The notes below the pieces were generated by a model. The model was not told where the DNA came from. It did no database searches and saw nothing but the letters and a program-made list of their open reading frames with translations. Positions 1-26,492 of a stretch of DNA of 27,076 bases are shown piece after piece. The first letter of the stretch is position 1; every line of letters begins with the position of its first letter. Source of the stretch: Candidatus Micrarchaeia archaeon (GTDB taxonomy: Archaea; Micrarchaeota; Micrarchaeia; Anstonellales; J096); the NCBI GenBank assembly GCA_041500405.1, contig JBGQMB010000012.1, positions 1 through 27,076 of the forward strand. Direction: 5' to 3'. The translations under genes and the position numbers were made by a program.

Positions 1-41
1 ATTGCCGCAAGCGCCGCTCCGGCAACAAGCATCCTTCCCAT
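1..41 (-). CDS. 5' end of a further paralog of the secreted TPR/transglutaminase-like family (runs off the window start)
   Basis: Nt 1-79 are identical to 1254-1332. The ATG at 41 gives MGRMLVAGAALAA, the same N-terminus as the 74..1294 gene. Confidence 0.75.
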   Translation of the reverse strand, partial: MGRMLVAGAALAA

Positions 42-79
42 GTTTCAGATTATGTACAAATGAGTATAAAAACCTATTC
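1..79. repeat. Leader repeat copy 1 (upstream gene stop + TATA + start of signal peptide)
   Basis: 79/79 identical to 1254-1332; may extend beyond the window edge. Confidence 0.95.
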
Positions 80-1294
80 GGGCTGGGCATCCCCTGCCGT
101 CAGGGCTTTGGCCTTCGCCCTGTCCGCGTCCGCCTCTTTTTCCATATCCAGCAGAAAATAGGCACGGGAGCGGCTAAGATAGTAATCCGGATCCCGAGGC
201 TCGAGTTTTATGGCTTTGCTGAAATCCTTGACTGCCCGCCGCAATTTCCTATAATAGACATCCAGCTGGTTTCCAAGGAGGTCAGAGTAACAACATAGGT
301 TATAGTAGCATTTTCCCCGCAGATAATACAAGTCAGCGGCAAGCGAGTCCATTTTTATGGCCTTGTCATAGTCCCTTAGTGCTAGCCAAGTTTTCCCCAG
401 CTTCTCATAAGCGTCCCCACGACAACAGTAACAAGTCGCGCACGGCAACAGGTCTATAGCTTTGTTGAAGTCCTTGACTGCCCGCCACAATTTCCACCTG
501 TTACAATATGAAGCTCCACGCTTCTCATATGCCATAAATAAAATCTTTTCAGGGTCTGATGTTATGGCTTCGATGATTGGATAATGATCGTGGACCTTTT
601 TCAGTGGGTAATACTCTCCGACTAGTATTTCAAAAAAGAAATTTTGCGTCTTGACAAGCTGATGCATCCAAACAACAACCATCTCCATCTTGATATGGAG
701 TTCTTTTGCCACATCAAAGACGACAAAACTGGAGGTAGTGCATTCAAACTTACCGGTTTTAATTGATTCGGACATGTAGCCAATGTAGTCCTCAATATAG
801 CCATTCGTATCGCAGCCCCAGTGTTTTTTGAAGTGCATGATGCTGTTTATGCCGGTTATGAACTTTTCCTCATCCATCTGGGCTTTTCTCCCCAGCAGGT
901 CCAGAAGACCGTCTAACACATTAGCATCAAGGCGACAAAGGTGTTTCCATAGAAATCCCCTGTACTCATGCCTCAGGATATATGAAACGTCAGAAACAAG
1001 CTCGTTGTATCTCCGTGCATAAGCGGCCGCCTGCTTTGGGGTATTCTCCAATTCAATCATAATCCTTCTGCTTCCTGCGGTTTCCTTGGTAATGTCGGAC
1101 TGTTTTGTGGGAACTTTTGCAAGCAAGGAGTCTATCCAAGGCGCTGTCTTTACTCTGATGCTGTCGGCCGCTGCCTTTTCCATCATCGTTTTCTCTGCCA
1201 GCGGCTGCGCAGTTATCCTTGGTTTTTTGTCGCAAGCCGGACTAATTGCCAGCATTGCCGCAAGCGCCGCTCCGGCAACAAGCATCCTTCCCAT
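74..1294 (-). CDS. Secreted/lipoprotein transglutaminase-like (SirB1/Transglut_core2-type) domain + TPR repeat protein
   Basis: Signal peptide with lipobox-like ISPAC. GKFECTTSS...VWMHQLVK...FFEI gives a Cys/His/Glu arrangement. C-terminal TPRs (AYEKRG..AVKDFNKAI, YYLSRSRAY). Confidence 0.75.
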   Translation of the reverse strand: MGRMLVAGAALAAMLAISPACDKKPRITAQPLAEKTMMEKAAADSIRVKTAPWIDSLLAKVPTKQSDITKETAGSRRIMIELENTPKQAAAYARRYNELVSDVSYILRHEYRGFLWKHLCRLDANVLDGLLDLLGRKAQMDEEKFITGINSIMHFKKHWGCDTNGYIEDYIGYMSESIKTGKFECTTSSFVVFDVAKELHIKMEMVVVWMHQLVKTQNFFFEILVGEYYPLKKVHDHYPIIEAITSDPEKILFMAYEKRGASYCNRWKLWRAVKDFNKAIDLLPCATCYCCRGDAYEKLGKTWLALRDYDKAIKMDSLAADLYYLRGKCYYNLCCYSDLLGNQLDVYYRKLRRAVKDFSKAIKLEPRDPDYYLSRSRAYFLLDMEKEADADRAKAKALTAGDAQPE

Positions 1295-1340
1295 GTTTCA
1301 GATTATGTACAAATGAGTATAAAAACCTATTCAGGCCGAG
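1254..1340. repeat. Leader repeat copy 2
   Basis: 1254-1332 is identical to 1-79. 1279-1340 matches 3458-3519 at 57/62. Contains TTTTTATA on the minus strand about 25 nt upstream of ATG 1294. Confidence 0.95.
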
Positions 1341-2098
1341 GACTCCTTTTGGCCGAGGATGCGCTTCGCCAATTCCTCTATCTCCGTGACGGTCTTGATG
1401 CCGCAGTTGCGGAACCTCCTGAGGCACATCCTGCGTTCCCTTTCGTCAGGGTTCTCCCTATAGAAGCGCCCGAGGTCAAGGATGCCCGGCGCATCGCTGC
1501 CTGTCGCCCAGCGCAGTATGTTGACTGCGCGCACGCTGGCCCCGAAATAGCACAGCGATGGGTTCTCGAATCCGTACTTGTGGCAGAACGACTCTATCTC
1601 GTGCTGGAGCGTCCCCTTTTCGGGGTAAAACCCAAGCCCCTGCATCCCCCTGCGCCATGCCAGCAGATCGTCGGCCGTCGGATACTTCTTTCCAGTGAGT
1701 TCCTGTGCCATCCCAAAAGCCATGGAATTCATGCCAAGCTCCTTGAGGCCGCGCAAGATTCCCATCCCGACTCCGAGCCCGATTACCTCTTTTTTGTGCA
1801 TGCATTTTTTCAGGCGCGCAGCGATCTCCGGGTTTGCCATGCCTTCTTTGAAATCATCAGGAATAGGCACCTTCTTGCCCGTATAGCGGCTGACTGCGCA
1901 GACTGCGCCGTATCCAAGCCCCATGGCGCCGAGCGTGCCGGGCGCGTTCCTTTTTTCGAACAAGTCAAGCGAGTCAAGCGCGAACTTGATGTTCTGGTGG
2001 CTCATGTCGTATTTCCTGGCTATGCCCCTTAGGCTCACGCCTTTTTTCCTCAGGCTGGCTATCTCCCTGTTGCGTTGCAGGCGCTGCTCGAAGTTCAT
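1331..2098 (-). CDS. HTH protein with RNA polymerase alpha-CTD-like (HhH) C-terminal domain
   Basis: N-terminal RNREIASLRKKGVSLRGIARKYDMSHQNI HTH. C-terminal SVRAVNILR...LRRFRNCGIKTVTEIEE resembles alpha-CTD. TATA-like TTTTTAAAT near 2120-2129. Confidence 0.6.
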   Translation of the reverse strand: MNFEQRLQRNREIASLRKKGVSLRGIARKYDMSHQNIKFALDSLDLFEKRNAPGTLGAMGLGYGAVCAVSRYTGKKVPIPDDFKEGMANPEIAARLKKCMHKKEVIGLGVGMGILRGLKELGMNSMAFGMAQELTGKKYPTADDLLAWRRGMQGLGFYPEKGTLQHEIESFCHKYGFENPSLCYFGASVRAVNILRWATGSDAPGILDLGRFYRENPDERERRMCLRRFRNCGIKTVTEIEELAKRILGQKESSA

Positions 2099-2139
2099 GT
2101 TGTAATTAGTGGAAGAAAGTATTTAAAAAGCATGGCTTC

Positions 2140-2225
2140 TTATGCAGAAAGGCCTGCCAGATACTCCATCTCCTCATCCGTCATATTGTAGAATATCTTC
2201 GCCTTCTCCGCATCCGACATCACCA
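2140..2225 (-). pseudogene. Orphan 3' end of the RFC large subunit gene (alternative allele)
   Basis: 70/86 nt identical, ungapped, to 3510-3595. Translates VMSDAEKAKIFYNMTDEEMEYLAGLSA* versus VMSDSEKAKIFYNMTDEEMEYLSGLST*. Confidence 0.92.
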
Positions 2226-3473
2226 CTCATCATTATCGTAGTATTCGTTTACTATGCTGCTGTCTGCCCTGTACTCCTCCATCATGCCCAGCTTTTTGTA
2301 TGCAAGTGCGCGGTTATTGTAGAAGGTTGCATCATCCGTTGAGCCCAGCTCTATCGCCTTGCTGTAATCCATTACCGCCAGCACATATTCCCCAAGATTG
2401 TAGTGCGCAACGCCGCGGCTGTTGAACAAATCGGCGTTCTTCGGTTCCAGTTCCACCTTCATCGCCTCGCCATAATCCCCGATCGCCAGCCTGTAATCGC
2501 CCAATTCGAGAAATTCGCTTCCGCGATTGCAATATGCATCCATGAGGAATCTGTTATCATGCTTGAAGCATGCGTTTGCGTGCTTCGTCATCCCCATTAT
2601 CGACAGGGTATAAAACAGGATTGCCTGATGATGCTGCCCGCATTTGGCAAGCTTCGCCCCCTTGCGCCAATAGATGTTTGCCAGGGCGACCTCAATGTCG
2701 GATGTCACGTCGTAGACAACCGGATACGTGTCATAAACGTAATCCAAGGTGTAATGGCATCCCGTTGTTGTCTCGAAACACAGGTTTCCCACCTTGGCGA
2801 ACTCATGCTCAGGGACCAAGACCAGCTCTGTCCAGATGCCGAGGGAATTTGCCACGTCAAATGCCAGGAATGCCGAACTGGCGCAATTGAACTTTCCGGT
2901 CCTGACGAGCGCGCCCATATCCGCTCCTTTTTCATAGCTCATTTCCAAATCGCGTGACATGATCCTCCATATGCCTTTCATGAATTTTTTTTCGCTTACT
3001 GCGTATGCCTTTTTTCTGTCTCCATACCTTTCCCTGATTGTCCCGGAGATGGCCGCAACAAGCCTGTTATATTCATGCGCATACGCGGCCGCGGTTTCGG
3101 CGGTATCCGCCTCTATCATTATCCTCTTGCTTCCGGCAATCCTAAAAGGGGCGATAGCGTCGCCGAGGCCCGCGGGATGTTCCCTCGAATACCATCTCGC
3201 CAAAAAGGATTTTATGGACGGGGCAACAGCAATGCCGGTTTTATCTGCCGCGGATGAATCTTGCGTATTGATGTTTGAATAATGCCATTTTGCAAAAAAG
3301 GAATCTATCTCGGACTTGGTAAAGGACGTGTCATCTTTCCCCATCGCGGAGTCCAGCATGGTCATTGGCCTTTCTTCCAACGGCTGCGCCCATATCTTGG
3401 GTTTCTTGTCAAAAGCCGGGCCTGCCGCAAGAATGGACGCGGCAAGCACACAGGTCGCAAGCATCCTTCCCAT
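2220..3473 (-). CDS. Secreted transglutaminase-like domain + TPR repeat protein (paralog of 74..1294)
   Basis: Signal peptide MGRMLATCVLAASILAAGPA. GKFNCASS...VPEHEFAK...FETT motif. TPRs (AYCNRG, LFNSRG, FYNNRA). Shares AGS(K/R)RIMIE with the paralog. Confidence 0.78.
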   Translation of the reverse strand: MGRMLATCVLAASILAAGPAFDKKPKIWAQPLEERPMTMLDSAMGKDDTSFTKSEIDSFFAKWHYSNINTQDSSAADKTGIAVAPSIKSFLARWYSREHPAGLGDAIAPFRIAGSKRIMIEADTAETAAAYAHEYNRLVAAISGTIRERYGDRKKAYAVSEKKFMKGIWRIMSRDLEMSYEKGADMGALVRTGKFNCASSAFLAFDVANSLGIWTELVLVPEHEFAKVGNLCFETTTGCHYTLDYVYDTYPVVYDVTSDIEVALANIYWRKGAKLAKCGQHHQAILFYTLSIMGMTKHANACFKHDNRFLMDAYCNRGSEFLELGDYRLAIGDYGEAMKVELEPKNADLFNSRGVAHYNLGEYVLAVMDYSKAIELGSTDDATFYNNRALAYKKLGMMEEYRADSSIVNEYYDNDEW

Positions 3474-3519
3474 GTTTTAGATTATGGACAAATGAGTATA
3501 AAAAGGTATTCAGGTCGAG
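3458..3519. repeat. Leader repeat copy 3, including the rfcL stop codon
   Basis: 57/62 identical to 1279-1340. Confidence 0.92.
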
Positions 3520-4679
3520 AGCCCGGACAGGTATTCCATCTCTTCGTCCGTCATATTGTAGAATATCTTCGCCTTTTCCGAATCAGACATGACCAGCTTC
3601 GCGTAAAGCGGCAGGAACGGAATCACCCTTTTGGAGGACGTGTGGACCCTTTTTCCAATCTTCAACGCAACGGACTTTGCCATCGCCCTTGCCATCATGG
3701 ACCTGCTCATCTCGACAAGGTAAAGCGGGAACTGGTAGTTCTCAACCGGCTTGTTGTACGCCTTTTTCTTGCTCAGGCCAACGCCGGCAGTCATAAGCGT
3801 GACGGAATATCTCATATAGCCGTAATACTGCCTCCTGAAAATCCTTCCGTCGAAAACATCGGCCCTTGAAAGCCAGTTGAACGCCTCCGCGATTTCCTCC
3901 GGCGTCTCGTACTCGCGCGCTATGTTCTCGTCCAGCCATAGCTTGAGCATGTCAGTATCCATATCCATGACTGAAGATGCGTAGCGCGCGCCTGAAAGCG
4001 TTGTGCACCTGAATATTGTCTTGAGAACGCTTTTGTCGTCTATTCTCCTGTCCCTTGGGCTGAACGACGCTGCCTCAAGGTCGTTGAGCGCGGAGCGCAG
4101 GTCCCCGGAACAGCCCTGGGATATCCTCATTATCGCTTCCTCGCCTGCGTCCAGCTTTTCCTTCTGCGACACCTCGCGGAGGAGATTTGCGACGTCGGAC
4201 GGCGCGATTTTCTTCATCTGGATTGCCTTGACGTACATCCTCAGCGGCTTTAGCTTCGGTTCGGACGTGTCGTTCGCGGTTATTATGACAGGCACGCTGG
4301 TTTCCTTTATCAGGTTGACAAGCTCGCCTATGCCGCCCCTGTCGTCCTTTGTCATCGCGTCCGCGTCATCAACAAGTATAATCCTTTTCCTTCCGAAAAC
4401 GGTCCTTGAGAAGAAGGCCGGCCTTATGTTTTTCTCAAGCGTCGCCCTGTCCCTCAGGCTGCTTGAGGATATCTCCAGCATCTCCAAACCAAAGTCCCTT
4501 GCAAGCGCGTACGCAAGGCTTGTCTTTCCCACGCCCGGAGGCCCGCCGACCATCAGGGGCTTTTCCCTTTTGCCGCTTAGGATGGCGCCCAGCCAGGCCT
4601 TGGCCGCTGCCTTGACCTCGTCGTTGCCTATCATCCCTGAAACGGATTTCGGCATGTACTTCCTTGTCAGCGGCACCAT
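3510..4679 (-). CDS. rfcL: Replication factor C large subunit
   Basis: PLTRKYMPKS, Walker A GPPGVGKTS, Walker B IILVDDAD, GDLRSALNDL, and C-terminal WLDENI..WLSRADVFDGRI. ATG at 4679 with TTTTAAAA at 4701-4708. Confidence 0.92.
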   Translation of the reverse strand: MVPLTRKYMPKSVSGMIGNDEVKAAAKAWLGAILSGKREKPLMVGGPPGVGKTSLAYALARDFGLEMLEISSSSLRDRATLEKNIRPAFFSRTVFGRKRIILVDDADAMTKDDRGGIGELVNLIKETSVPVIITANDTSEPKLKPLRMYVKAIQMKKIAPSDVANLLREVSQKEKLDAGEEAIMRISQGCSGDLRSALNDLEAASFSPRDRRIDDKSVLKTIFRCTTLSGARYASSVMDMDTDMLKLWLDENIAREYETPEEIAEAFNWLSRADVFDGRIFRRQYYGYMRYSVTLMTAGVGLSKKKAYNKPVENYQFPLYLVEMSRSMMARAMAKSVALKIGKRVHTSSKRVIPFLPLYAKLVMSDSEKAKIFYNMTDEEMEYLSGLST

Positions 4680-4788: not shown

Positions 4789-5433
4789 ATGACATTCAAG
4801 GAAAGAAAGTATGCCATGGCAAGCGAACCCGGGTTCAAGAGGCAGGTCGGAGGCAGCAGGCTTAAGGCGGTAAAAAAGCCAAAGCCGGACGATTCAGAAA
4901 GCCCGCTGCAGGCGCAGATAAGGGTGCTGAAGGAAAAGGTCTTGGATTTATCAGGTTCGTCCACAGAAAAGGAGGCAAAGGCGATTTGTGCTGAGCTGGG
5001 CGACTTATATTCATTGGACAGGCGATTCCATCTTGCAGGCGTTTATTACAAAAAAGCCGGTGCGCTTGTCCCCGCAGGCAACGCGTTCATGGCAGCCAAG
5101 GAATATTTCTCCGCGGCAAGGTGCCTTGAAACCGCAGGCGAGAAAAAGCTGGCCAAAAAGGCGTATAAGCTGGCAGCTAGGCAGGAGATGAAGAGCTGCA
5201 ACTACGCTGTCGCGATTTGTGCCTACAGGAAGGCGGGCAAACTGAAAACGGCAAAGGCAATAGAGGATAAGATGCTGGAAAAGGCCGCATTGGCCAAGAA
5301 GCGCTTGGAAACAAAAAGAAAGAACGCGGTGCCGATAAGGCATCCGTCCCAGATGGGCGACCTTGAAAGGTATGAGTATGATAAAGCGATGAAGGGAGCG
5401 GCCAAGAAGGCAGCATCGAGGAAACAAAAATAA
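4789..5433 (+). CDS. Basic alpha-solenoid (TPR/SNAP-like) protein
   Basis: Start reassigned to ATG 4789 (TTTAAAA near 4758). Repeats AGVYYKKAG, AARCLETAG, AICAYRKAG. Confidence 0.65.
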   Translation: MTFKERKYAMASEPGFKRQVGGSRLKAVKKPKPDDSESPLQAQIRVLKEKVLDLSGSSTEKEAKAICAELGDLYSLDRRFHLAGVYYKKAGALVPAGNAFMAAKEYFSAARCLETAGEKKLAKKAYKLAARQEMKSCNYAVAICAYRKAGKLKTAKAIEDKMLEKAALAKKRLETKRKNAVPIRHPSQMGDLERYEYDKAMKGAAKKAASRKQK

Positions 5434-5449
5434 TTGCGGTGAGTATATT

Positions 5450-6841
5450 ATGGCGGAAACCCTTGAAAGGACAATAGGCAAGTGCAAAGGCAAGCCCGGA
5501 TACAGCGGAATGGGCAGGCCAACCAATGCCTTCAGGGAAAAACACAAGGGGACAATAAGAAGATCCATCGCAACGGTTGCGGAAAAATTCAAGGACGCGC
5601 AAGGCGGCGCCCCTGAAACAGGGCCCGGTGCCAAGTACGAGGAGGGCATTCTCATCAGGAACGGCCTGAAGATAAAGCCGCCCGGAGTGAAATGGGGCGT
5701 ATTGATACCAGAATGGGCAGGGCATAGGGGCCCGCCCACGCACGAGCTGCGCATCAAGCACGGGTTTGCTGAGCCAGCCAAAGAATTCAGCTGGAGCGAT
5801 ATCATACCTGAATACAAGGGAGAAGGTATGCCTTCAGATGAAGTGCTTTTGGAGCACAATCTTGCTAGGAAAACAGAATCAGGCGCCATAATAAAGATAA
5901 AGCCAAAAGGCGCAAAATGGGGAGACGTCATAGAGGAGCACCGTGGAAAGAAAGGCCCAGCTCCGCTTGGGCTGCGCATCAAGCACGGCTTTGCAGAGCC
6001 AAGGCCAGAAAAGGAAAAGGCCGAAAAGGAGCCAAAGCCGAAAAAATTCAGCTGGAAAAACATCCCGGAATACACCGGAAGGGGACTGCCGTCAGACCCC
6101 ATACTTGAGAGATATGGGCTCCCGACAAGGAGCCAGCGCGCGGAGATGGCGCAAAAAGCAGATGCGCCAAACAATGATACAAAAGTAATGGCCAGGGCCG
6201 ACGGGCTGAAGATAAAGCCAAAGGGCGTCAAATGGGGAGAGGTCATTTCAGAATGGAAAGGCAGGATGGGCCCGCCAACCAGGGCGCTGCTTGAAAAATA
6301 CGGGTTCGCGCCGCTTTCCACATGGAAGGAGCCAAAGAAGAAAGCGCCAAAGCAGGAAAACGCGTACATGAACAAACAGTTCAGGAAAAATCTGATCGAG
6401 GACGGCCCGGTGGTAGAGCCGCCGGATGAAAATGAGCAGGACGAGATTGAGGCGTTGCTGCCGGAGGAGAAGCCCGTTGAAAAAAGGGCGACCGCACGCA
6501 ATGCGGCTGCCGCGCGCCCGGCAAGGCGCGAAAGGGTAGAGGAAACCCAGGCTTTCATTAGCACAGATTCTGAAAGAAGGGCTTTCGACGCCAAGATGGA
6601 AAGGCTCAGGATAGGGGTCGAAACCCTTGAGGGGACCGGAAGGCCCGAGGAGGCGAAAAAGGCGTGGGCGGAAATAGCGGACATATACCGGTCAAAGGGG
6701 CTGAATCTGCTGGCAGGCGCCTATTTCAAAAAGGCCGGCGAATACAAAAAGGCCGCGCAGGCGTTCAACGCCTGCGGCGAATACGACAAGGCCAAGCTTT
6801 GCCGCGAAAAGGCAAATGAAACGAGGCGCGGGGCAACATGA
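5450..6841 (+). CDS. Protein with five or six novel W..E[WYH]xG..P repeats and a C-terminal TPR/SNAP-like solenoid
   Basis: Three KIKPxGxKWG..HGFAEP-type units alternate with two FSW..IPEYxGxGxPSD units. C-terminal AGAYFKKAGEYKKAAQAF. Confidence 0.7.
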   Translation: MAETLERTIGKCKGKPGYSGMGRPTNAFREKHKGTIRRSIATVAEKFKDAQGGAPETGPGAKYEEGILIRNGLKIKPPGVKWGVLIPEWAGHRGPPTHELRIKHGFAEPAKEFSWSDIIPEYKGEGMPSDEVLLEHNLARKTESGAIIKIKPKGAKWGDVIEEHRGKKGPAPLGLRIKHGFAEPRPEKEKAEKEPKPKKFSWKNIPEYTGRGLPSDPILERYGLPTRSQRAEMAQKADAPNNDTKVMARADGLKIKPKGVKWGEVISEWKGRMGPPTRALLEKYGFAPLSTWKEPKKKAPKQENAYMNKQFRKNLIEDGPVVEPPDENEQDEIEALLPEEKPVEKRATARNAAAARPARRERVEETQAFISTDSERRAFDAKMERLRIGVETLEGTGRPEEAKKAWAEIADIYRSKGLNLLAGAYFKKAGEYKKAAQAFNACGEYDKAKLCREKANETRRGAT

Positions 6842-7491
6842 AAAACAAAACGGCGAAACCAAAACTGCATTCCAGGAAGTTTGCGGTGACTCGCGGCAGG
6901 AAAGCAAAGGATATCATGCCAGACCCTATTCTTGACGAGAATCTTCTTTTAGGGAGCCAGAATCTTGCGAACGGCGAAATCGAAAGCAAAATAAGGAAAA
7001 TCCTCGAGGACGACGAGCCTTCGTTGCCGGACATTCCGAAAATAGCTTCCGCTTCATACAGCGCGTTGCTGATAAAGAAGGCGCTTGACAAGAAGTTCAC
7101 ATCGGAAAGGCAGAGGGGCGAGCTCCGCAAGGCCCTGAAGAAAAATTATGAGCAAGCCAAAAGCCAGAAAGGCATAGAAAACGACGACACGTGGCTGCAG
7201 GTCGCGATTGCGGTGGAGGACTATGCGACCGCGGCGGAGATATGCCTGAAGCTCAACAGGTTCTGTGATGCCGAGCAATACCTTGAAAAGTCCGGCATGG
7301 AGCCAGCAGACGCCTGCCGCATGCTTGGGGAATTCTGCATGTCAAAGGGCTTTTACACGTATGCCGCATCCTTTTTCAGGAAGTCCGGCGACAAGGACAA
7401 GGAAGTCTCTGCCAAGACCATGAAAACCTATTCTCCGGCCATTACAGACATGTTAATGGAAGTCGAACCGTTAAAGGAAGACGAACCCTAA
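6838..7491 (+). CDS. Alpha-solenoid (TPR/SNAP-like) protein
   Basis: ATGA overlap with the upstream gene. Motifs AEQYLEKSG and AASFFRKSG. Confidence 0.65.
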   Translation: MKNKTAKPKLHSRKFAVTRGRKAKDIMPDPILDENLLLGSQNLANGEIESKIRKILEDDEPSLPDIPKIASASYSALLIKKALDKKFTSERQRGELRKALKKNYEQAKSQKGIENDDTWLQVAIAVEDYATAAEICLKLNRFCDAEQYLEKSGMEPADACRMLGEFCMSKGFYTYAASFFRKSGDKDKEVSAKTMKTYSPAITDMLMEVEPLKEDEP

Positions 7492-8093
7492 TTTCTGACC
7501 CTTATTGTCAGGACAAGCGCAAGGACAAGCAGTGCAAGCGCGGCCCTTGCGGAATCCTGGCCAAGCATGCCCAGGACGAACATCGCAGTCGGAACGCAAA
7601 GCAGCACGGTTATGATGTCCCAGGCCGCGTTCTCAGTCTTTATCCTTCCACAGAACCTTTTGCCAAACGGGAAGAGCGGCGCAACCCCGGACGGCGTCAT
7701 CGCGTCCTCAAGCAGATGGAGCATGTAACCAATGAACAGCCATGTTGCATACCAGTAATTGAGATTCGCTATGAAAAGCAGCGCGCCGACCAGCGCGGAC
7801 AGCAATGCGCCTGCGATGACGGTGTGCGCAAAGCCGCGGTGCCCGCCCATGTTTTTCCCTGCAACCAGCGAGAATATCCTTGAAAGCGGCCAGTTGAAGG
7901 CAAGGCCAAGAAACGAAAGCACGCGCGAAACGCCATTCTTCTTCCCTGAGACCGGGTTGCAGTCCGAAATGTCCATATCAGGAAGAATTGAGCCAAGGAC
8001 AGCGAAAAGGACTGCAAGGATCCATCCCTGCGAAGGAAATGCAAAAGGAAAAACTATGGCGAAAGTAGCCATCGCGTGCTGTCTCAGCATCAT
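7488..8093 (-). CDS. Membrane-bound metal-dependent hydrolase (YdjM/DUF457-like)
   Basis: H..GSILPDMD, HRGFAHT, GYMLHLLEDAMTPSGVAPLFPF motifs; multiple TM segments. Confidence 0.88.
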   Translation of the reverse strand: MMLRQHAMATFAIVFPFAFPSQGWILAVLFAVLGSILPDMDISDCNPVSGKKNGVSRVLSFLGLAFNWPLSRIFSLVAGKNMGGHRGFAHTVIAGALLSALVGALLFIANLNYWYATWLFIGYMLHLLEDAMTPSGVAPLFPFGKRFCGRIKTENAAWDIITVLLCVPTAMFVLGMLGQDSARAALALLVLALVLTIRVRN

Positions 8094-8581
8094 AGTATTC
8101 CGGCCTTCTGCAGAATGTCCTTGTTGACCTTCACGTACGGGGAGATGAATTTCAGGAACGCCTTGTCCTTGCCGACAACGACCCCGCCCCTGCCTTCCGA
8201 CGGATGCATGCGGAGGTTTGCAAGCAGCGTCTTGTCAACGACGTCTATGTGCCTCAGCGCCAGCTTCCCTCCGGATATGTCTCCAACGGCGTCGAAAACG
8301 CCTGCCAGGTATGCTGCCGCGTAATCGTTGCCGTACTTGAACCTCTCGGGTCTCTTTCCCCAGACCTGCGCGAAGAACTTCTGCATTGCAGAGTTGTAAA
8401 ACAATGCCTCGTTTTCAGCGTAGATGATTTTCTTGATTTCAGTCAGCTTCAGGGCAAGGCACGACTGTATGAACGCTTCTATCAGTTCGTCGCTTCCCCT
8501 GGTGCCTATCCCCTTCTCTGACTTTGAGTATCCCCAAAGTCCGATAACGTATGAAAGCTCTGGGCTGAGCCTGATTTTCAT
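8090..8581 (-). CDS. Stand-alone LAGLIDADG-like domain protein (probably catalytically degenerate)
   Basis: LSPELSYVIGLW and AYLAGVFDAVG motifs about 90 aa apart. Confidence 0.6.
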   Translation of the reverse strand: MKIRLSPELSYVIGLWGYSKSEKGIGTRGSDELIEAFIQSCLALKLTEIKKIIYAENEALFYNSAMQKFFAQVWGKRPERFKYGNDYAAAYLAGVFDAVGDISGGKLALRHIDVVDKTLLANLRMHPSEGRGGVVVGKDKAFLKFISPYVKVNKDILQKAGIL

Positions 8582-8583
8582 AA

Positions 8584-9099
8584 TCAGACCCTTCTGTCCG
8601 TTTCCCTGCCGCGCTCCTTTTCCTTTTCTGCGGGCATTATCGGCCTTATCGGAACGTCGGCGGAAACCCTGATTTCCTCGGCCCTGCGCTCCACCTTTGT
8701 GAGGTTTTCCTTCAGCACCTCGCCGTGCAGGACGTCGAAATTTGCCATGAACTTGGCCGCAACATGGTCCCCGTTCAGCCCCATCTCGTTGAATATTTCC
8801 ACGAGCTTCTTTCTCTGGTTTTCCGAGAACGGCTGCCTCCCTTCCATGTCATTCCTTATGGCCGCGTCAACCACCGTGTCAAGGACCACAGAAAGCTTTT
8901 TCATCTTGGACTTGTTCAGCTTGTCGCCCTCCTTGGACGACATTATTATCGCGGCAGCAAAGGCCCTTGTCGCGACCTGTATGGCGTTTGCCCTCTTGGT
9001 GAGTACGCTTTCCAGCACCTTGGCCTCCTTTTCGCTGAGCTTCTTGCCGTTCCTGACGGCGTCAAGCGTCTTTTCTATGAATGCCGAGAGTATTCCCAT
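8584..9099 (-). CDS. Hypothetical helical protein
   Basis: 171-aa ORF tightly packed (1-2 nt gaps) in a minus-strand gene run; charged helical composition. Confidence 0.65.
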   Translation of the reverse strand: MGILSAFIEKTLDAVRNGKKLSEKEAKVLESVLTKRANAIQVATRAFAAAIIMSSKEGDKLNKSKMKKLSVVLDTVVDAAIRNDMEGRQPFSENQRKKLVEIFNEMGLNGDHVAAKFMANFDVLHGEVLKENLTKVERRAEEIRVSADVPIRPIMPAEKEKERGRETDRRV

Positions 9100-9100
9100 A

Positions 9101-9511
9101 TTAGCCCTTCAGTATCTTTTTTAGCTTTTCCGGCTCCCTTGACGATCTCACAACTATCTCGGTGTACCCGTTGGCCCTGCCCACAAGGTAAACAGACTCA
9201 AGGTCCAGGCCGTTCTTGTAAATCTTTTCAGTGAGCTTGGCCAGCTCGCCGGGCCTATCCTGCATCTTGACGACATAAGCCCTTGAGACCTCCTTGGACA
9301 CCACCGTTACTCCGGACTTCGTTATTGCCTTGAGCGCAGTCGCGGGGTCCGCGGTAACAAGCCTTACCACCGCAGCCTTGCTGTCCTGCGCATAAGCGTT
9401 TATCGACTCTATGTTAAGGCCTGAAACAGATAGCGCGCTGGACAGCCTATACAGGCTTCCTGGAACATTTTCCAATACAAGAACAATCTCGTTGATTTCA
9501 TAAATGTCCAT
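9101..9511 (-). CDS. ACT domain-containing protein (two ACT repeats)
   Basis: LENVPGSLYRLSSALSVSGLNIESI and MQDRPGELAKLTEKIYKNGLDLESVY. Start placed at ATG 9511 after an AGGTGG SD-like site. Confidence 0.88.
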   Translation of the reverse strand: MDIYEINEIVLVLENVPGSLYRLSSALSVSGLNIESINAYAQDSKAAVVRLVTADPATALKAITKSGVTVVSKEVSRAYVVKMQDRPGELAKLTEKIYKNGLDLESVYLVGRANGYTEIVVRSSREPEKLKKILKG

Positions 9512-9642
9512 CAGCCAACCACCTTGACACATTAAGATGGCGAAGCTTTTAAACCATAGCCCCTTTCATTTGAGCCCAAGGGCCAAAGAAAAGGAAGGCT
9601 GAGCCTTAAGGGAACCTTGGTTCCTTTAGGAAAGAAAAAGGG

Positions 9643-9666
9643 TTGCGGCTGCCGGGATTTGAACCC
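9643..9666 (-). repeat. Orphan copy of the tRNA-Gly 3' end (att-like)
   Basis: TTGCGGCTGCCGGGATTTGAACCC is identical to 9756-9779. Confidence 0.9.
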
Positions 9667-9710
9667 TCCGGGCCCAAACCCCTAGATGCGCCCACAGGCA
9701 CCAAAATGCC

Positions 9711-9754
9711 TTCTTTTTGAACCCAAGGGCCTTTTCTTCGCGAAGAAAAGGGGC
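9711..9754. repeat. Palindromic repeat element or hairpin immediately 3' of tRNA-Gly
   Basis: Perfect 22-bp palindrome CCTTTTCTTCGCGAAGAAAAGG (9730-9751). Related copies at 9888-9930 and 20390-20424, degenerate copy at 9566-9599. Confidence 0.8.
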
Positions 9755-9756
9755 TT

Positions 9757-9827
9757 TGCGGCTGCCGGGATTTGAACCCGGGTCACAAGCTTGGAAGGCT
9801 CGTATCCTACCACTAGACTACAACCGC
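9757..9827 (-). tRNA. tRNA-Gly (anticodon TCC)
   Basis: GCGGTTG..CAGCCGC-A acceptor stem, D-loop TAGTGGTA, anticodon arm CGAGC-CTTCCAA-GCTTG, T-arm CCGGG-TTCAAAT-CCCGG. No intron, no encoded CCA. TATA near 9853-9860. Confidence 0.96.
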
Positions 9828-9887
9828 GCAATTCTGAATTATGCTAGATAAGATTTAAAATAATGGCATATTGCGCTGCCAAAAGGG

Positions 9888-9930
9888 TTCTTTTGAACCC
9901 AGGGGCCTTTTCTTCCCAAGAAAAGAGGCC
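9888..9930. repeat. Second copy of the palindromic repeat element
   Basis: TTCTTTTGAACCCAGGGGCCTTTTCTTCCCAAGAAAAGAGGCC aligns with 9711-9754. Confidence 0.8.
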
Positions 9931-9931
9931 T

Positions 9932-9980
9932 GACTACAGCCGCGCAATCCCTATACTGCCAGGATAGATTTTTTAAAACA
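9932..9980 (-). repeat. Orphan copy of the tRNA-Gly 5' end plus its promoter
   Basis: GACTACAGCCGCGCAAT versus GACTACAACCGCGCAAT at 9816-9832, followed at similar spacing by a TTTAAAA box. Confidence 0.75.
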
Positions 9981-9992
9981 TGGGGAAGGCCG

Positions 9993-10811
9993 CTATTCGC
10001 GGATGAAGTCCCCCTCCCTGTATGCCGGAGAGGATATGCAGAGCAGCTCCAGCTCATCTGTCTCGCTCCCATTCTCCAGCGCATGGACGACGTTCCTTGG
10101 AATGAAGACGACAGAGCCTTTTTTCACGTCGAATTTCCTGCTGCCGGCCATGACCTTGCCCCTTCCCCTCACCACATAATATATCTCCTCGCTTATGCAG
10201 TGGTGGTGGGGCTTGGCCTTCCTTCCCTTTTGCAAAAAGCCGACTGCCAATCCGACGTCCAGCAGGTTCCTTTCGGCCTGCGTGCCGAGTTCGTAGACCA
10301 GCGCGCCATCCAGCGCAGTCACCGGCGGCTTGCCATGCCTGAATCTTTCAGGTCTTGCCTTCGCATTGGCGGAACCCTTCAAACGCTTGATGTCATTCCG
10401 GTCAAAAGGCGGCATCGCAAGCACAAGGTGCTCCAGCTCCGAACGCCCCCTGTTGTCCAGCTTGTGCGGAGCCCAAGGCGGAATCATGACATACGTCCCT
10501 TTTTCCGCAACAGTCGACATGTCCCCATGGTAAAGGATGCCCTTTCCGGAAAGGACAAAATATATCTCGTACATCCTATGGTGCCTGTGCCACAGGGAAT
10601 TGTCTCCGGGGTCCATCGTCACGTGCGCTAGGCTGACCTTCGGCAGGGAGATGACCTCCCTCAGATTTTGGTTGCAGACATTGTAAACGGTCTTCAATTG
10701 ATAAACGTCGATGAATCTTGGCTTTTTGGCGGACGCGTCAGGCGGCAGTATGTCTCCGAAGCCTGCCTGCCCTTTGTCCATGAGGCCCCTTTTTGTCCTC
10801 TGCGCCTGCAT
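9993..10811 (-). CDS. Bicupin (two cupin domain) protein
   Basis: HRHHRMYEIYFVLSGKG..IPPWAPHKLDN and HHHCISEEIYYVVRGRG..IPRNVVHALEN. Start estimated at ATG 10811 from the TATA near 10835-10842. Confidence 0.88.
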   Translation of the reverse strand: MQAQRTKRGLMDKGQAGFGDILPPDASAKKPRFIDVYQLKTVYNVCNQNLREVISLPKVSLAHVTMDPGDNSLWHRHHRMYEIYFVLSGKGILYHGDMSTVAEKGTYVMIPPWAPHKLDNRGRSELEHLVLAMPPFDRNDIKRLKGSANAKARPERFRHGKPPVTALDGALVYELGTQAERNLLDVGLAVGFLQKGRKAKPHHHCISEEIYYVVRGRGKVMAGSRKFDVKKGSVVFIPRNVVHALENGSETDELELLCISSPAYREGDFIRE

Positions 10812-10894
10812 ATCCCCATTTTGGCGCATAGGAGTTAAAAAACGCCAGGGCGCGGAAAACAAGGTATATAAAGAGGCGCGGGCAAAACATTTCC

Positions 10895-11800
10895 ATGCAA
10901 CTTGTAACAGGCGGAGCGGGCTTCATAGGCTCGCACATCGTTGATATCCTCAACCCAAAGGACACTGTAATACTAGATGACTTTTCCAACGGAAAAATGG
11001 AGAATATAAACAGCGCAGTCTCCAACGGCGCAAAGCTCATGGAGATGGACATCGCGGACATAACGCCGGAGACGCTGGAGGATATTGACGTCATTTTCCA
11101 CCAGGCCGCGCTTGTTTCAGTCCCGCTAAGCTTCCAGCAGTTCGAGAAAACGTACAAGGACAACGTCGCGTCATTCCTCAACCTTTTGGAGTGCGCAAGG
11201 CAATCCGACGTCGAAAGAATAGTGTTCGCAAGCTCGGCGGCGGTTTACGGCGAAAGCGGGGAGCCGCTCAGGGAAGATGCCAAGCTGTTCCCGAAAAGCC
11301 CGTATGCGGAAAGCAAGGTCATGGATGAGCTTTATGCAAGGATTTACGCAAAGGAATACGGCATGAAGATAATCCCATTGAGGTATTTCAACGTCTACGG
11401 GCCAAGGCAGGACCCGTCCAGCCCGTATTCGGGCGTCATATCGCTATTCGCATCCAATATGAAAAAGAATGAACCAATAACGGTTTATGGGGACGGAAAC
11501 CAGACAAGGGACTTTGTGTTTGTCAAGGACGTGGCAGAGGCGAACCTGATTGCGTCAAAGATGAAGCGCAACTTCGCAGAGCCGATAAACATAGCGTCCG
11601 GAAAAGGGACCACGATAATGGGGCTTTTCAGGATTTTGTGCGACATAACAGGCTATTTCAAGGAGCCGGAGTTCGCGGCTTCGAGGGAGGGCGACGTGAA
11701 GTTCAGCGTGGCGGACATTGAAAAGGCAAAGGAAATAATGGACTTCTCGGCTGAAAGGACGCTTGAAAGCGGGCTGAAAGAGACGCTGGAATCGGCCTAA
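10895..11800 (+). CDS. NAD-dependent epimerase/dehydratase (UDP-glucose 4-epimerase-like extended SDR)
   Basis: GGAGFIGSH, SSAAVYG, YAESK (YxxxK), LRYFNVYGPRQ, GDGNQTRDFVFV. Confidence 0.93.
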   Translation: MQLVTGGAGFIGSHIVDILNPKDTVILDDFSNGKMENINSAVSNGAKLMEMDIADITPETLEDIDVIFHQAALVSVPLSFQQFEKTYKDNVASFLNLLECARQSDVERIVFASSAAVYGESGEPLREDAKLFPKSPYAESKVMDELYARIYAKEYGMKIIPLRYFNVYGPRQDPSSPYSGVISLFASNMKKNEPITVYGDGNQTRDFVFVKDVAEANLIASKMKRNFAEPINIASGKGTTIMGLFRILCDITGYFKEPEFAASREGDVKFSVADIEKAKEIMDFSAERTLESGLKETLESA

Positions 11801-11837
11801 CGCATCAATATTTAAACCGTTTTTCTCCCAACAAAGC

Positions 11838-12833
11838 ATGGCAAACGGCACCTTGGCTGTGAAAGAGGAAAAGCTCAGGATTTCCAGGAATGAAAGGCGC
11901 GAAATCCTCAAGACAACCGATGCATTGGTTGCGCGGAGCATGAAATCCGCCGTCACCAAGATGAGGTTTGACATTTACAGTTCTTGCTCAACAGTGTCTG
12001 CGCGGACGACAATAGCCAAAGTGTCCCGCATTGCAGAGGACTTTGAAGCCGGCGCGTTCATGGAATTCGGCAAGGCATGGGACAAGTACCAAAATGCGCT
12101 CAGCCTTGCAAAATCCAATCCCTCCGCAGAGACCGGAAGAAGGTATTACAGGGCGCTGGACACGCTTGCAAACGAGTTCAACAGCGCAATAAACGATTAT
12201 GCCGAGAGCAAGTCCAAATTGTGGCTCGGCTGGCCGAACCTTTTCATCAATTCCGCGGACTTGGCGGGATACGCGCTCATCCCGTTCACCATCGGCCTGG
12301 GAGGCATAATGGAAAAAGGGTTCGCAAAGGCCGCGAAGGCGATAACAAAAAAGTATGCCGGGAACCAGCTGGCAAGGCCGCTTGCGCAAGAGCTGATAAA
12401 GAAGGAGATAAAGCACACTGTCAACATGGCGTTCAACACGTTCTTTGCGCTTTCAATATCAGGAAGCCTTGGGTCAACATTGGCAAAGGATCTTATAGGC
12501 AAGCCGTCGGCCGCAAAACAGGCGATAGACATGTCCTCGTTCGCAACCATGGTGCTGAAGGACAGGGATGCGACAAACAGGCTTTGCGAGTCCATGAGGC
12601 AGATAGGCGCGCTTGCCCCGGAAGCCCACACGGTCGCGTTTGAGGACAAGATGATGGAAATAGCAAACCCACCTTTGGACATTGGCAAATATATGAGCTC
12701 GGTTGGCATGCAGGTGGCGCTGCTCGCACTGATAAACAGGAATGCGATGCTGAAAGGCGCGAAAAAAATCCTGCAAAGGTCGGGAACAATGAGCCCGGCG
12801 ACAGTAGCCAAGCTCAGGTATTCAGGGCTTTGA
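11838..12833 (+). CDS. Hypothetical helical protein with hydrophobic segments
   Basis: 331-aa ORF with its own TTTAAA box near 11811. Hydrophobic Gly-rich stretches LAGYALIPFTIGLGG and FFALSISGSLG. Confidence 0.65.
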   Translation: MANGTLAVKEEKLRISRNERREILKTTDALVARSMKSAVTKMRFDIYSSCSTVSARTTIAKVSRIAEDFEAGAFMEFGKAWDKYQNALSLAKSNPSAETGRRYYRALDTLANEFNSAINDYAESKSKLWLGWPNLFINSADLAGYALIPFTIGLGGIMEKGFAKAAKAITKKYAGNQLARPLAQELIKKEIKHTVNMAFNTFFALSISGSLGSTLAKDLIGKPSAAKQAIDMSSFATMVLKDRDATNRLCESMRQIGALAPEAHTVAFEDKMMEIANPPLDIGKYMSSVGMQVALLALINRNAMLKGAKKILQRSGTMSPATVAKLRYSGL

Positions 12834-12882
12834 GTCCGGCGATGCCATAATCTTTTAAACTGTAGCGCAGTTAAGCAAAACC

Positions 12883-13455
12883 ATGTACAAATTAATGCTA
12901 GTTTCAATAATGGCCGCAATGCTGGTGCTCTCGGCAGGGTGCATATCCCAAGGGACAGGAACAGCAAACACAAGCAACGGCACTGCCGCAACCCCAATCA
13001 TTCCAAACAACTCCGGCAATGTTACTCCTTTGCCAAACGCAACGACCAATGACACAACCGAGCCGAACAGCACGGCCGCGCTCAACCAAACGCCAATCGC
13101 ATTCAAATGCGCGGAGATAGCGTCCCCTTCGGCAGAGCAGGAGGCTGCATGCAAGAAGAAAGTCAGCGCCTATGTCGCAATAAAGAACGAGAGCAACTGC
13201 ACCACGGAATACAGGTGCATGACGGCGCTGGAAAGGGTGACGTACGACCTTTCAAAAATCCAAATCCAGGACGAAAGGTGCCCTGAAGCCATAACGGCTG
13301 ATGTCCTGTACCAGGCGGCAAACATCTGCGGGGCAGACTACGAGTCCTTAGAAGTCATAGTCACGTCAAGGTACAACTACGTCGGCCAGTCGTGCGTGAA
13401 GTCCCTGAGCATAAACTGCACGACCTACAGCGCGTTCGTCAGGGCAACGAGCTAA
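12883..13455 (+). CDS. Putative surface lipoprotein/glycoprotein
   Basis: Signal peptide with LSAGC lipobox, Thr/Asn-rich linker, 11 N-x-S/T sequons, 8 further Cys. Confidence 0.75.
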   Translation: MYKLMLVSIMAAMLVLSAGCISQGTGTANTSNGTAATPIIPNNSGNVTPLPNATTNDTTEPNSTAALNQTPIAFKCAEIASPSAEQEAACKKKVSAYVAIKNESNCTTEYRCMTALERVTYDLSKIQIQDERCPEAITADVLYQAANICGADYESLEVIVTSRYNYVGQSCVKSLSINCTTYSAFVRATS

Positions 13456-18157: not shown

Positions 18158-18247
18158 AAGGCAGTATCGCAGGCAGGTATTAAAATGATAACGGCATTGT
18201 CCGCCGTGCCAATAGCATTTTTAACCTCTTTTATTCACAATAAGCCC

Positions 18248-18967
18248 ATGCGGCTTATGGAAAGGAAGCCAATAAGGGAAATGCGCATCAGGCTCAAGGC
18301 ATTGTTCAGCCGCAGCAAGGCGCGCTTTGAGAAAAACGGGGCTGCCCAGGGGCATCTTGACCTCAAGCTTTTCAATGAATGCAAGGTCGCGCAGCAGGAG
18401 GACGCCAGGGCCAAGGAGGTCAGGCGACTGCTGAAGCAGGGCGCAAACCCGGACGTATCGCTCAACTGGGACGGCGTTTCTGCGCTTGCGCACGCTGCGC
18501 AGAACGAGTCCTGCAAAATCGCCAAATTATTGCTTAAGGCCGGCGCAAACCCGAACGCAAGGGACAAGAATGGATGCACGCCGCTCATGCATGCAACAAA
18601 ATACGTAAATGAGACTGCGACAGCAAAGATTCTCCTTGAATATGGCGCAGACCCGAACGCAAGGGACAACAACGGATGGACGCCGCTCATGTACGCGGCG
18701 TCCAAGGGCGGCCCGGAACTTGCGAGGCTCCTGCTTGAGCGCGGCGCATTCATGACCGCAACAAGCAGAAAGGGCAACACCGCGCTGATGCACCTTGAGA
18801 AAAGGCACGCGAAATGCACGCTCCCCCTTGGCGGATATGGGGATCAGGAAATCTATGACGGCATAATCAAAGTTTTCAATGAGCACAGGGCAAGGACGCT
18901 GAAACGCATCACTGGCTTTGCCTTCGCGAAATTCAAGTCAAATTTCAGGGAATGCGCGAGCCATTAG
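18248..18967 (+). CDS. Ankyrin repeat protein (Ank1)
   Basis: GANPNARDKNGCTPLMHA and GADPNARDNNGWTPLMYA. Start reassigned to ATG 18248 (or 18257) using the TATA near 18218. Confidence 0.88.
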   Translation: MRLMERKPIREMRIRLKALFSRSKARFEKNGAAQGHLDLKLFNECKVAQQEDARAKEVRRLLKQGANPDVSLNWDGVSALAHAAQNESCKIAKLLLKAGANPNARDKNGCTPLMHATKYVNETATAKILLEYGADPNARDNNGWTPLMYAASKGGPELARLLLERGAFMTATSRKGNTALMHLEKRHAKCTLPLGGYGDQEIYDGIIKVFNEHRARTLKRITGFAFAKFKSNFRECASH

Positions 18968-18999
18968 CATTTTTAAACACTTTTGCGCACAAATCCCCC

Positions 19000-20319
19000 A
19001 TGCAGGAAAAGCCGGTTTTAAGCAATGGCGCGCCCCAGGAGACGAGGAAGCCAGTGCCGGACAAGGAGGCCGCCCAGAGGGAGCTGGACTGCGGGCTTGT
19101 GGATGCAGTGATGGAAGGAAGCCTTGAAAAAACAAAAAGCCTGTTCAGCATGGGCGCAAGCATCGACGCCAAGGACTATTGGGGCAAGACCGCGCTAATG
19201 TGCGCCTGCCTTTATGGCCATGAAAAAGTCGCAGCGTTCCTTGTTGAAAACGGCGCAAGCATAAACGCGAAAGACAAGGGCGGTTGGACGCCGATGATGT
19301 TTGCAGCGCGCAATGGATTCACCAACGTTGTAGGGCTGCTGAGTGACAGGGGCGCGGACGTTGGTTCAAGAGACGAACGCGAGTACACCGCACTCATGCA
19401 CGCGATTGAGGAGGAGCGCATCGACACTGCAAGGCTGATGATCAGAAAGGGCGCCGACCCGAAAACGCAGATAAGGAACATCGGGAGCCTACTGCCCAAT
19501 GCCGCAAAAATGGGCATGTACAAAATCGTGAAGTTCGTTGTAGAGGAAGGCACTGACATCGACTCGCTTGACACTGATACGGTTGACGGCAAAGGCATCA
19601 CCGCGCTGGCCTATGCAATACACAAAAACGATTTTGGCATGGCCAAGTTCCTTTTGAAGCACGGCGCAAACATAGACAAGGCAGACCAGTATGACAGGAC
19701 ACCGCTGATGCGCGCAGTGGAACAAGGCGACGCAAAGGCAGTTTCCTTCATTTTGGAGAACGGCGCCGACCCGGACTTGGAGAGCAACATCGGAAAGACC
19801 GCGCTCATGATGGCGGCAAGGGACGGAAACCTTGAAATGGCCAAGCTGCTTGTGGAAAAAGGCGCATCCATTGAAATTGAATGCAAAAGCGCGCTGATCG
19901 AGGCGCTTGACAACAGGCATGACGACATCGCCAAATTCCTCATAATGAACGGCGCCAATGTAAATGCAAAGGACGGGTACGATGTCACCGCGCTGATGCA
20001 CGCCTTGGCAAACGGGAACATGGCAGAGGACAAATTTGAAATACTCATGCTCCTTGTGGACAAGGGCGCGGACATAGGCGCAAAGAATTCGAGAGGAATG
20101 GATATCATCGACCTGGCCATGAATTACGCCTCGTCCATCCCGCTGCCGTCCTCGGCACATTCCGCTGGTGCCACGATGTGGTTGAATGGCATAAAACAGA
20201 ATGCAATACGGCTTCAGAAGTTTCTTGAGATGGCCGGAGCATTCCAGCCCCTCATAGGCAAGGGGCCGCTGAGCGAGCTTGTGCTCAATTTCGCGGATTG
20301 CACCATGCAAAGAAAATAG
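19000..20319 (+). CDS. Ankyrin repeat protein (Ank2, about 10 repeats)
   Basis: Repeated GAxIxAKDxxGxTALM units. ATG 19000 with TATA near 18970. Confidence 0.9.
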   Translation: MQEKPVLSNGAPQETRKPVPDKEAAQRELDCGLVDAVMEGSLEKTKSLFSMGASIDAKDYWGKTALMCACLYGHEKVAAFLVENGASINAKDKGGWTPMMFAARNGFTNVVGLLSDRGADVGSRDEREYTALMHAIEEERIDTARLMIRKGADPKTQIRNIGSLLPNAAKMGMYKIVKFVVEEGTDIDSLDTDTVDGKGITALAYAIHKNDFGMAKFLLKHGANIDKADQYDRTPLMRAVEQGDAKAVSFILENGADPDLESNIGKTALMMAARDGNLEMAKLLVEKGASIEIECKSALIEALDNRHDDIAKFLIMNGANVNAKDGYDVTALMHALANGNMAEDKFEILMLLVDKGADIGAKNSRGMDIIDLAMNYASSIPLPSSAHSAGATMWLNGIKQNAIRLQKFLEMAGAFQPLIGKGPLSELVLNFADCTMQRK

Positions 20320-20424: not shown

Positions 20425-20430
20425 GACTTT

Positions 20431-20685: not shown

Positions 20686-20709
20686 ATTCAATTGAGAGGG
20701 GAAGATATT

Positions 20710-26461: not shown

Positions 26462-26492
26462 CTTTTTAATCCCTTTGCCGCACAATGTCATT

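Follow-up and report, generated by a model that had tools for sequence, protein, structure and literature searches.

How did a second copy of the last 86 nt of rfcL, the gene for the large subunit of replication factor C (RFC-L), come to lie downstream of the gene itself, and which of the two ends is the newcomer? The stretch of DNA analyzed here (27,076 nt in all, referred to as the window) carries rfcL on the minus strand at 3510..4679, where it encodes 389 aa and forms the conserved anchor gene of the locus. The product scores 310 bits against NCBIfam NF003229 (cut-off 280), contains the Pfam AAA and lid domains, and has as its best homologs Micrarchaeota proteins named RFC large subunit (the host is Micrarchaeota-like on the same evidence); its predicted model matches RFC1 chains in the PDB. 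The AlphaFold model has a pLDDT of 80-87 over residues 331-389 and under 50 over residues 207-325, and we therefore used the local tail helices alone. In the model, the C-terminal domain ends in two helices (predicted at residues 367-373 and 378-388), and these make up the tail.

The gene's own 3' end (the resident tail, 3510..3595, minus strand; codons 363-389 plus TGA) and the second copy (the orphan tail, 2140..2225, minus strand; 27 codons plus TAA) are each 86 nt long and align pairwise without gaps, with 16 mismatches. Twelve of these are synonymous and three replace a residue, the sixteenth being in the stop codon; by codon position, over the 28 codons including the stop, 12 fall at third, three at first and one (that in the stop) at second positions. 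The three differing residues among 27 are S367, S385 and T389 in the resident tail, each of them alanine in the orphan. Every figure that an earlier, sequence-only reading of this DNA had given for the alignment (86 nt ungapped, 16 mismatches, 3 of 27 residues, TAA in the orphan as opposed to TGA in the resident) proved exact. Among the 46 ends of long open reading frames (ORFs) in the window, a second copy was found for the rfcL end alone.

That reading had also held that the orphan is not a decayed duplicate and that both ends evolved as functional rfcL, and the evidence bears this out. By Nei-Gojobori counting, the two tails have 12 synonymous differences over 16.0 sites (pS 0.75) and three replacement differences over 65.0 sites (pN 0.046), a synonymous excess with a Fisher p of 1e-8. 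When neutral decay was simulated by mutating a copy to 16 mismatches (50,000 runs at each of five transition biases), none of the 250,000 simulations gave three or fewer residue changes. The orphan is without sign of decay because each of its three odd residues occurs in a real ortholog (A367 in P0002, A385 in P0003-P0005 and A389 in P0148). Both tails evolved under coding constraint within working rfcL genes; the orphan, having neither a frameshift nor a premature stop and carrying residues that are ortholog states, appears to have parted from a working rfcL recently, relative to the pace of neutral decay.

The orphan had been described as a diverged allele, a description that holds for the synonymous divergence and understates the distance: of the degenerate codons that specify the same residue, 10 of 21 differ between the tails, as compared with 111 of 304 between the window rfcL and that of locus L001 (protein 83% identical), so that the tails would stand roughly at species level, an imprecise estimate from 21 codons only. 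A tree of the 27 residues places the two tails with P0148 and separates them from P0002 (bootstrap 76). On its left the homology breaks off abruptly, with 27 of 120 nt identical upstream of the orphan (the background level), and the repeat itself starts with four identical nucleotides followed by a mismatch. Beginning 20 nt inside the repeat is an identical stretch of 29 nt (2177..2205, minus strand, equivalent to 3547-3575), possibly a crossover or conversion tract, which is borderline by permutation (p 0.009) and by codon-usage simulation (p 0.03, or 0.05 if conditioned on the number of mismatches). The six codons to the left of this stretch are also synonymously diverged (three of four degenerate codons), as expected if the whole orphan was once coding.

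Downstream of rfcL, and on the same strand, lie in order TPR1 (2220..3473), the orphan, an HTH gene (1331..2098), TPR2 (74..1294) and the start of a third paralog. TPR1 (417 aa, with a Pfam TPR match) has its last codon and stop inside the orphan, and its product shows a signal-peptide-like N-terminus (by eye), a middle domain and C-terminal TPR repeats; TPR2 (406 aa) is its paralog at 32% protein identity. The middle domains (2664-3176 in TPR1 and 513-1060 in TPR2, both minus strand) have a conserved Cys and His motif (by eye) and no Pfam match, and are probably transglutaminase-like, given an Atlas lead to PF13369 (Transglut_core2) with a score of 0.84, under the 0.9 trust level. The two products are possibly secreted cysteine-type enzymes. 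The protein cluster of TPR1 has a second member, and among 27 matches the sole full-length TPR1 homolog is P0122, whose N-terminus is almost exactly that of TPR1 and whose C-terminus bears a hydrophobic extension of about 45 residues (an anchor) that is absent from TPR1 and TPR2. The 1,370-bp unit between the two tails contains one promoter and one TPR gene; no match to an integrase, transposase or recombinase was found in the unit, the array genes or the scanned neighbors (Pfam, PHROGs and NCBIfam).

The HTH gene encodes a putative regulator of 255 aa, with a Pfam HTH_38 match below cut-off, a match to the PHROG 769 repressor (E 0.004), Atlas leads to Sigma70_r4 and RNA_pol_A_CTD (under 0.85) and seven homologs besides itself among 1.84 billion representatives. 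Its repeated helix-hairpin-like segments resemble the C-terminal domain of the RNA polymerase alpha subunit. Between the orphan and this gene is a 41-nt spacer (2099..2139, minus strand) with a TATA-like promoter; we make no claim that it is homologous to the handle described below: 13 of 23 nt match handle copy 1, a level attained by one of 19 unrelated upstream regions too.

Common to the three TPR genes is a handle of 83 nt composed of the end of the preceding gene, a promoter that we take to be TATA-like, and the first codons. Copy 1 (3433..3515, minus strand; repeat family D4) runs from the last rfcL codons through the promoter and ATG into the start of TPR1, and is 76% identical to copies 2 and 3, which are themselves identical at 82 of 83 nt. 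Copy 2 (1254..1345, with the shared 83 nt at 1254-1336, minus strand) spans the end of the HTH gene and the start of TPR2; copy 3 (1..83, minus strand), which includes the first 13 codons of the third TPR paralog, is cut by the window edge. A scan for sigma-70 promoters and terminators, a method unsuited to archaea, returned promoters at the level of shuffled sequence. Each stop codon in the array is supplied by the next module, those of rfcL, HTH and TPR2 by a handle and that of TPR1 by the orphan. The presence of a near-identical promoter and N-terminus on TPR paralogs that are about 32% identical suggests that the gene starts have recently undergone conversion or cassette exchange. Directly ahead of the HTH stop, in the region of copy 2, 12 nt agree with the resident rfcL end at eight of 12 positions, all four differences being transitions, and may be an older, shorter relic of an rfcL end; in a control with 71 ORF ends, 16 of 2485 pairs reach 8/12 and three of 2485 preserve the purine/pyrimidine pattern as well; the 12 nt themselves were picked post hoc.

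We evaluated the region after rfcL in a genome scan that confirmed 84 rfcL loci, the best 80 of which were analyzed; 78 of these are at most 47% identical to the window gene and two are close (L001, and L002 at 66%). In L002 rps13, rps4 and rps11 directly follow rfcL and the upstream gene order of the window is kept (three tblastn matches, 32-57%), in L001 VIT1 and then the rps13 cluster follow, and in the window there are at least four accessory genes. With VIT1 in L001 and rps13 following directly in L002, the slot after rfcL is variable and the window array accessory. In this between-species comparison the slot holds different genes in different relatives (the TPR/HTH array, VIT1 in L001, none in L002), as is characteristic of flexible islands. 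The additive flexible islands of Alteromonas, as described in the accessible part of PMC4898812, likewise have a fixed slot and strain-variable cassettes, some with a target-gene repeat downstream; their targets are mostly tRNA or tmRNA genes (6/8), whereas here the target is protein-coding and the repeat synonymously diverged. A downstream copy of the gene's own rfcL end was found in none of the best 80 of the 84 loci (63 of the 80 have at least 2 kb of downstream sequence and 17 have under 2 kb), and 12 of the 80 contain short or weak extra tail matches (E 4e-5 or worse). Array-gene homologs near rfcL, in the same 80 of 84 loci, amount to generic TPR matches in two Methanothrix-like loci. 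In L002 the stop and next five bases (3394-3401) match window positions 2135-2142 at seven of eight, a faint hint, and one that could be chance, that the downstream flank of the orphan is the older one.

The explanation that we favor, and to which we assign a little less than an even chance, is an additive, homology-anchored insertion in which the original end of rfcL was displaced and became the orphan. A DNA segment with rfcL and the gene next after it, TPR1, would have arrived from a related lineage of Micrarchaeota and recombined by homology within rfcL, and the far end of the donor DNA (the 3' end of TPR1) would have been joined illegitimately to the recipient rfcL, 86 nt before its stop. 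rfcL would have stayed whole, now with an end of donor sequence, and TPR1 would have been gained; the recipient's old rfcL end and its old first gene (HTH) would have been pushed downstream. What the sequences show directly is the coding constraint on both tails, the abrupt left edge, a unit of one accessory gene with no integrase match and a slot after rfcL that differs among relatives; the mechanism (homology-facilitated illegitimate recombination), the direction and the reuse of the site are inferred. An insertion of this kind is favored by the synonymous excess, by the same signature in E. coli icd/icdC (below), by the different genes after rfcL in L001 and L002, by the synonymous divergence of the six codons left of the 29-nt stretch, by the contrast between tail and preceding residues in P0148, by the tree conflict in the last 27-residue window and, slightly, by codon usage. 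Against it, P0148 shares S367 and S385 with the resident tail, which would equally fit a native resident end, and the model does not account for the identical stretch of 29 nt (p 0.009-0.05). Of the two joints that an anchored insertion implies, the abrupt one was seen (27 of 120 nt identical upstream), and the homologous crossover was not located within rfcL. Homology-facilitated illegitimate recombination is rare and has been shown in bacteria (PMC5361080, accessible part); we found no report of it for Micrarchaeota in the literature covered.

A described parallel in layout comes from type VI secretion (T6SS) arrays of V. cholerae, for which an anchor and an illegitimate joint have been proposed, with old gene ends shifted downstream (PMC5361080; background in PMC2884548; accessible parts of both). 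As far as the former describes them, T6SS effector-immunity arrays and Rhs orphan ends resemble the rfcL array in having an upstream anchor, a module added beside it, older DNA shifted, orphan 3' ends and no dedicated integrase. There, however, the anchor is part of the toxin locus and the orphans are variable toxin tips, whereas in our archaeal host a replication gene that is essential provides the anchor and the orphan is a conserved end, with a polarity that we deduce from one contig. As for stacked orphan ends, the window has one clear orphan; the second, the 12-nt candidate relic, is suggestive only.

Which tail is the newcomer depends in large part on P0148, a protein of 152 aa (95% identical) that was the sole match in a search for short RFC-L fragments and is the closest relative found. 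Its tail is one residue from the resident and two from the orphan, combining both resident serines (S367 and S385) with the final alanine of the orphan. The four next relatives, by comparison, are each one residue nearer to the orphan than to the resident. The sequence-only reading had proposed that the 3' end of the gene was swapped with one from another lineage and had looked to related rfcL genes to tell the tails apart; the two ends do appear to be those of two related lineages, but the relatives divide, the next four lying nearer to the orphan and the closest nearer to the resident; the resident end is at most a candidate for the incoming one. Polarity at the DNA level favors the orphan as native by seven sites to four with each of the outgroups L001 and L002, and codon usage of core genes fits the orphan slightly better (lnL -23.8, as compared with -26.3 for the resident); neither result is significant. 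No gene of the orphan's own lineage, or of a donor, was found in protein searches or in the best 80 of the 84 loci.

P0148 differs from the window protein at six of the 125 residues preceding the tail and at one of the 27 tail residues, and P0002 at five of 125 and nine of 27 (Fisher p 0.06). For P0148 and for P0122 alike the longest contig on record measures 2,285 nt, and 1,812 nt would hold both. If the two are adjacent, a sister lineage would have a resident-type tail followed by a different TPR paralog, and resident tail and TPR start may travel as a unit. This pairing fits two histories, one in which the resident end is native and one in which the resident end and the TPR handle moved together; the second is the one favored by the counts above, in which P0148 departs from the window protein about as much as P0002 does before the tail and far less within it.

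The first of these histories underlies an alternative that we judge unlikely, although it survives best among those considered, in which the direction is reversed: the resident rfcL and TPR1 would be native, and a donor HTH segment, anchored on its right by the TPR handle, would have carried along, as a passenger, 86 nt of the donor's rfcL that became fused to the TPR1 end, with no swap of the working end. The two derived serines that P0148 shares with the resident require three steps by parsimony under such a history, handles 2 and 3 (99% identical) could have served as anchors, and TPR1 ends inside the orphan, lacking the C-terminal extension of about 45 residues seen in P0122; this last point is countered by TPR2, from which a P0122-type extension is missing as well. 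A conserved unit reaching from the end of one gene across the spacer into the start of the next is known from the lpl paralog cluster of S. aureus (PMC2568036, accessible part), where, unlike in the rfcL array, recombination proceeds via a conserved central region of each paralog and no essential gene end is involved. The reversed direction would need further events to account for the 12-nt rfcL-like relic at the HTH end and for the conflict of tail trees described below, and codon usage and outgroup polarity lean, short of significance, toward a native orphan. Both the favored insertion and its reverse amount to integrase-free recombination between related lineages.

The sequence-only reading had suggested a sliding-window phylogeny as a way to find a recombination breakpoint along rfcL. 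Over 27-residue windows in 12 orthologs, the last of 14 windows (equal to the orphan span) is alone in rejecting the whole-protein tree (AU 0.019), and a breakpoint inside rfcL was not located. The conflict is weak: the alternative tree was drawn from the tail itself, the SH p is 0.051, 14 windows were tested, and the discordance concerns P0005 and not the window gene. P0004 and P0005 differ at 17 of the 125 preceding residues and three of the 27 in the tail, and P0001 and P0004 at seven and 13, respectively; the divergence between tail types (P0001-P0007, residues 363-389) begins at the residue where the orphan begins. A tail-to-body rate ratio was considered as proof of swapping and set aside as not decisive, as it varies widely (15 against one for P0006-P0007 and seven against 13 for P0001-P0004).

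The 12-nt relic and the discordant tail tree are weak signs that the site after rfcL may have been reused. A broader possibility, which we regard as doubtful, is that in this Micrarchaeota lineage the rfcL 3' end serves repeatedly, and without an integrase, as a dock at which secreted transglutaminase-like TPR genes would be added singly, each with a new rfcL end, so that the last 27 residues of an essential clamp loader would be swapped repeatedly between species and the array would record the order of acquisition. The products of genes docked in this manner would plausibly be host-contact proteins.

A second alternative, which we consider quite improbable, is that the two tails are the attL and attR sites of an integrase-driven element targeting rfcL, the 1,370-bp unit being a non-autonomous cassette or remnant and the crossover having occurred in the 29-nt identical stretch, which contains a 5-bp inverted repeat (by eye). 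The overall anatomy is that of icd and icdC in E. coli (prophage e14; PMC13626634, accessible part): a working 3' end and an orphan 3' end flank inserted DNA, align ungapped and keep the stop, with the frame restored. In NC_000913.3 icd and icdC align over 165 nt with 12 mismatches, 11 of them at third positions, two residue changes and an abrupt left edge. The two systems differ in that e14 is 15.2 kb long and carries genes for IntE and XisE, its repeat opens with an identical core of 11 nt and the divergence is 7%, whereas the rfcL unit comprises 1.37 kb and one TPR gene, with no integrase match, no core at the edge and 19% divergence. Archaeal 3'-end insertion with the frame restored is also described for integrated elements of Thaumarchaeota, 14 of 68 of which sit in the 3' ends of protein-coding genes; in contrast to the rfcL unit these elements carry several genes, their att or target-site repeats are short (median 17 bp), and rfcL is not among the targets named in the accessible part of that account (PMC6563490). 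Our locus shares with the integrase class the duplicated, frame-restoring 3' end, and shows neither its integrase nor its edge core. No integrase or transposase match was obtained for the three array genes or the scanned neighbors, the identity at the repeat edge is 4 nt as opposed to 11 nt in icdC, and the left arm has diverged as coding sequence does (three of four degenerate codons). Provided that P0148 has not itself undergone a swap, an att origin would also need four steps, as opposed to three, to account for the three variable residues. Searches of 2090-2240 returned no phage or plasmid DNA match, and neither the two tails with their flanks nor handle copy 1 forms a hairpin or attC structure stable beyond shuffles (z -1.3 to 0.0). 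The same lack of attC-like folding (both tails with flanks, and handle copy 1) and of an integrase match led us to reject an integron cassette array. No Rfam family overlaps the orphan; the Rfam matches elsewhere in the window are one tRNA (tRNA-Gly, 9757-9827, minus strand) and one large SRP RNA (20430-20687, minus strand).

Chimeric assembly of two co-occurring relatives in the metagenome is a very unlikely source of the arrangement. The structure is read from the assembled contig, and both the 29-nt identical stretch and the near-identical 83-nt handles are places where short k-mers could produce a false join. A false join within the 29-nt stretch, however, would leave 20 nt of diverged rfcL fused to the end of TPR1, which an assembler would not make; moreover, the array genes are all intact, and P0122 and P0148, if adjacent, point to a similar layout elsewhere.

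It is less probable still that the orphan is an old duplicate maintained by selection as a translationally coupled peptide of 26 residues. The sequence-only reading had pointed out that the TGA of TPR1 overlaps an ATG of the orphan (TGATG) and could permit coupled translation. The overlap is present, but it derives from inherited RFC-L codons, Val (GTG) followed by Met. This Met is found also in P0148 and P0002, and GTG accounts for 79 of the 270 Val codons in core genes. Without TGATG, the TPR frame would end 12 codons further on at an ATGA overlap, which both tails contain; with this second overlap available, some overlap was likely by chance. The peptide would amount to a pair of short helices detached from a larger helical domain (in the model), has no Pfam match, and is found as a conserved separate ORF in none of the best 80 of the 84 loci, two of which are close. 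In archaea translation is coupled by such overlaps, and reinitiation in H. volcanii does not require a Shine-Dalgarno motif (PMC6728339, accessible part); incidental translation of the orphan is possible by analogy, and a selected peptide is unsupported. Local duplication followed by neutral decay, which would explain a direct repeat 1,370 nt apart, is eliminated for practical purposes by the 250,000 simulations described above.

The duplicated rfcL end is real, statistically solid and the product of a known kind of event. Its novelty lies in the target, a DPANN replication gene that is essential, in a unit that is small and integrase-free, and in the hint that the spot has been used more than once; no prior report of rfcL as an insertion site was found in the literature covered, outside which fall supplements and most subscription journals. 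For an uncultured DPANN archaeon, the scar documents DNA exchange among species-level relatives directly in the sequence; it also marks an entry point of accessory secreted genes into the genome. Should the site be reused, the array would give a dated order of gene gain and a hotspot testable by PCR, and RFC-L C-termini in the group would depart from the species tree; if the event was single, the locus would be a clean archaeal counterpart of icdC, of modest interest.

Several further features of the region were observed. Upstream of rfcL, three lineage-specific genes (4789-7491, plus strand), none with a Pfam, NCBIfam or PHROG match, separate it from a YdjM gene on the opposite strand, and one of them (463 aa) has three internal repeats (D10 and D12); L002 has one different gene between rfcL and YdjM, so that the upstream side of rfcL is variable too. 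A conserved 163-aa gene at 8090-8581 (minus strand; L002 405-893, 57% identical) has no Pfam match and contains what looks by eye like a LAGLIDADG-like motif. The promoters upstream of 4679 and 18157 (both minus strand) have an 11-nt stretch in common just 5' of the start codon; the promoters of 13493 and 21958 look alike as well, and these similarities are possible shared regulatory elements. Ankyrin-repeat-like paralogs at 18235-20319 and 25928-27076 have similar basic N-termini (repeats D1-D3 and D5), and a similar N-terminus seems, by eye, to begin just upstream of rfcL in L001. In L001, a tRNA-like gene at 2491-2610 (plus strand; Rfam E 0.046, with an irregular 3' half) was missed by ARAGORN and may be a tRNA-Ser with a T-arm insertion; ARAGORN finds none at the equivalent place in L002. 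Finally, L002 encodes a repeat-rich surface protein of 2,387 aa (6025-13188, plus strand) directly after a tRNA-Leu.
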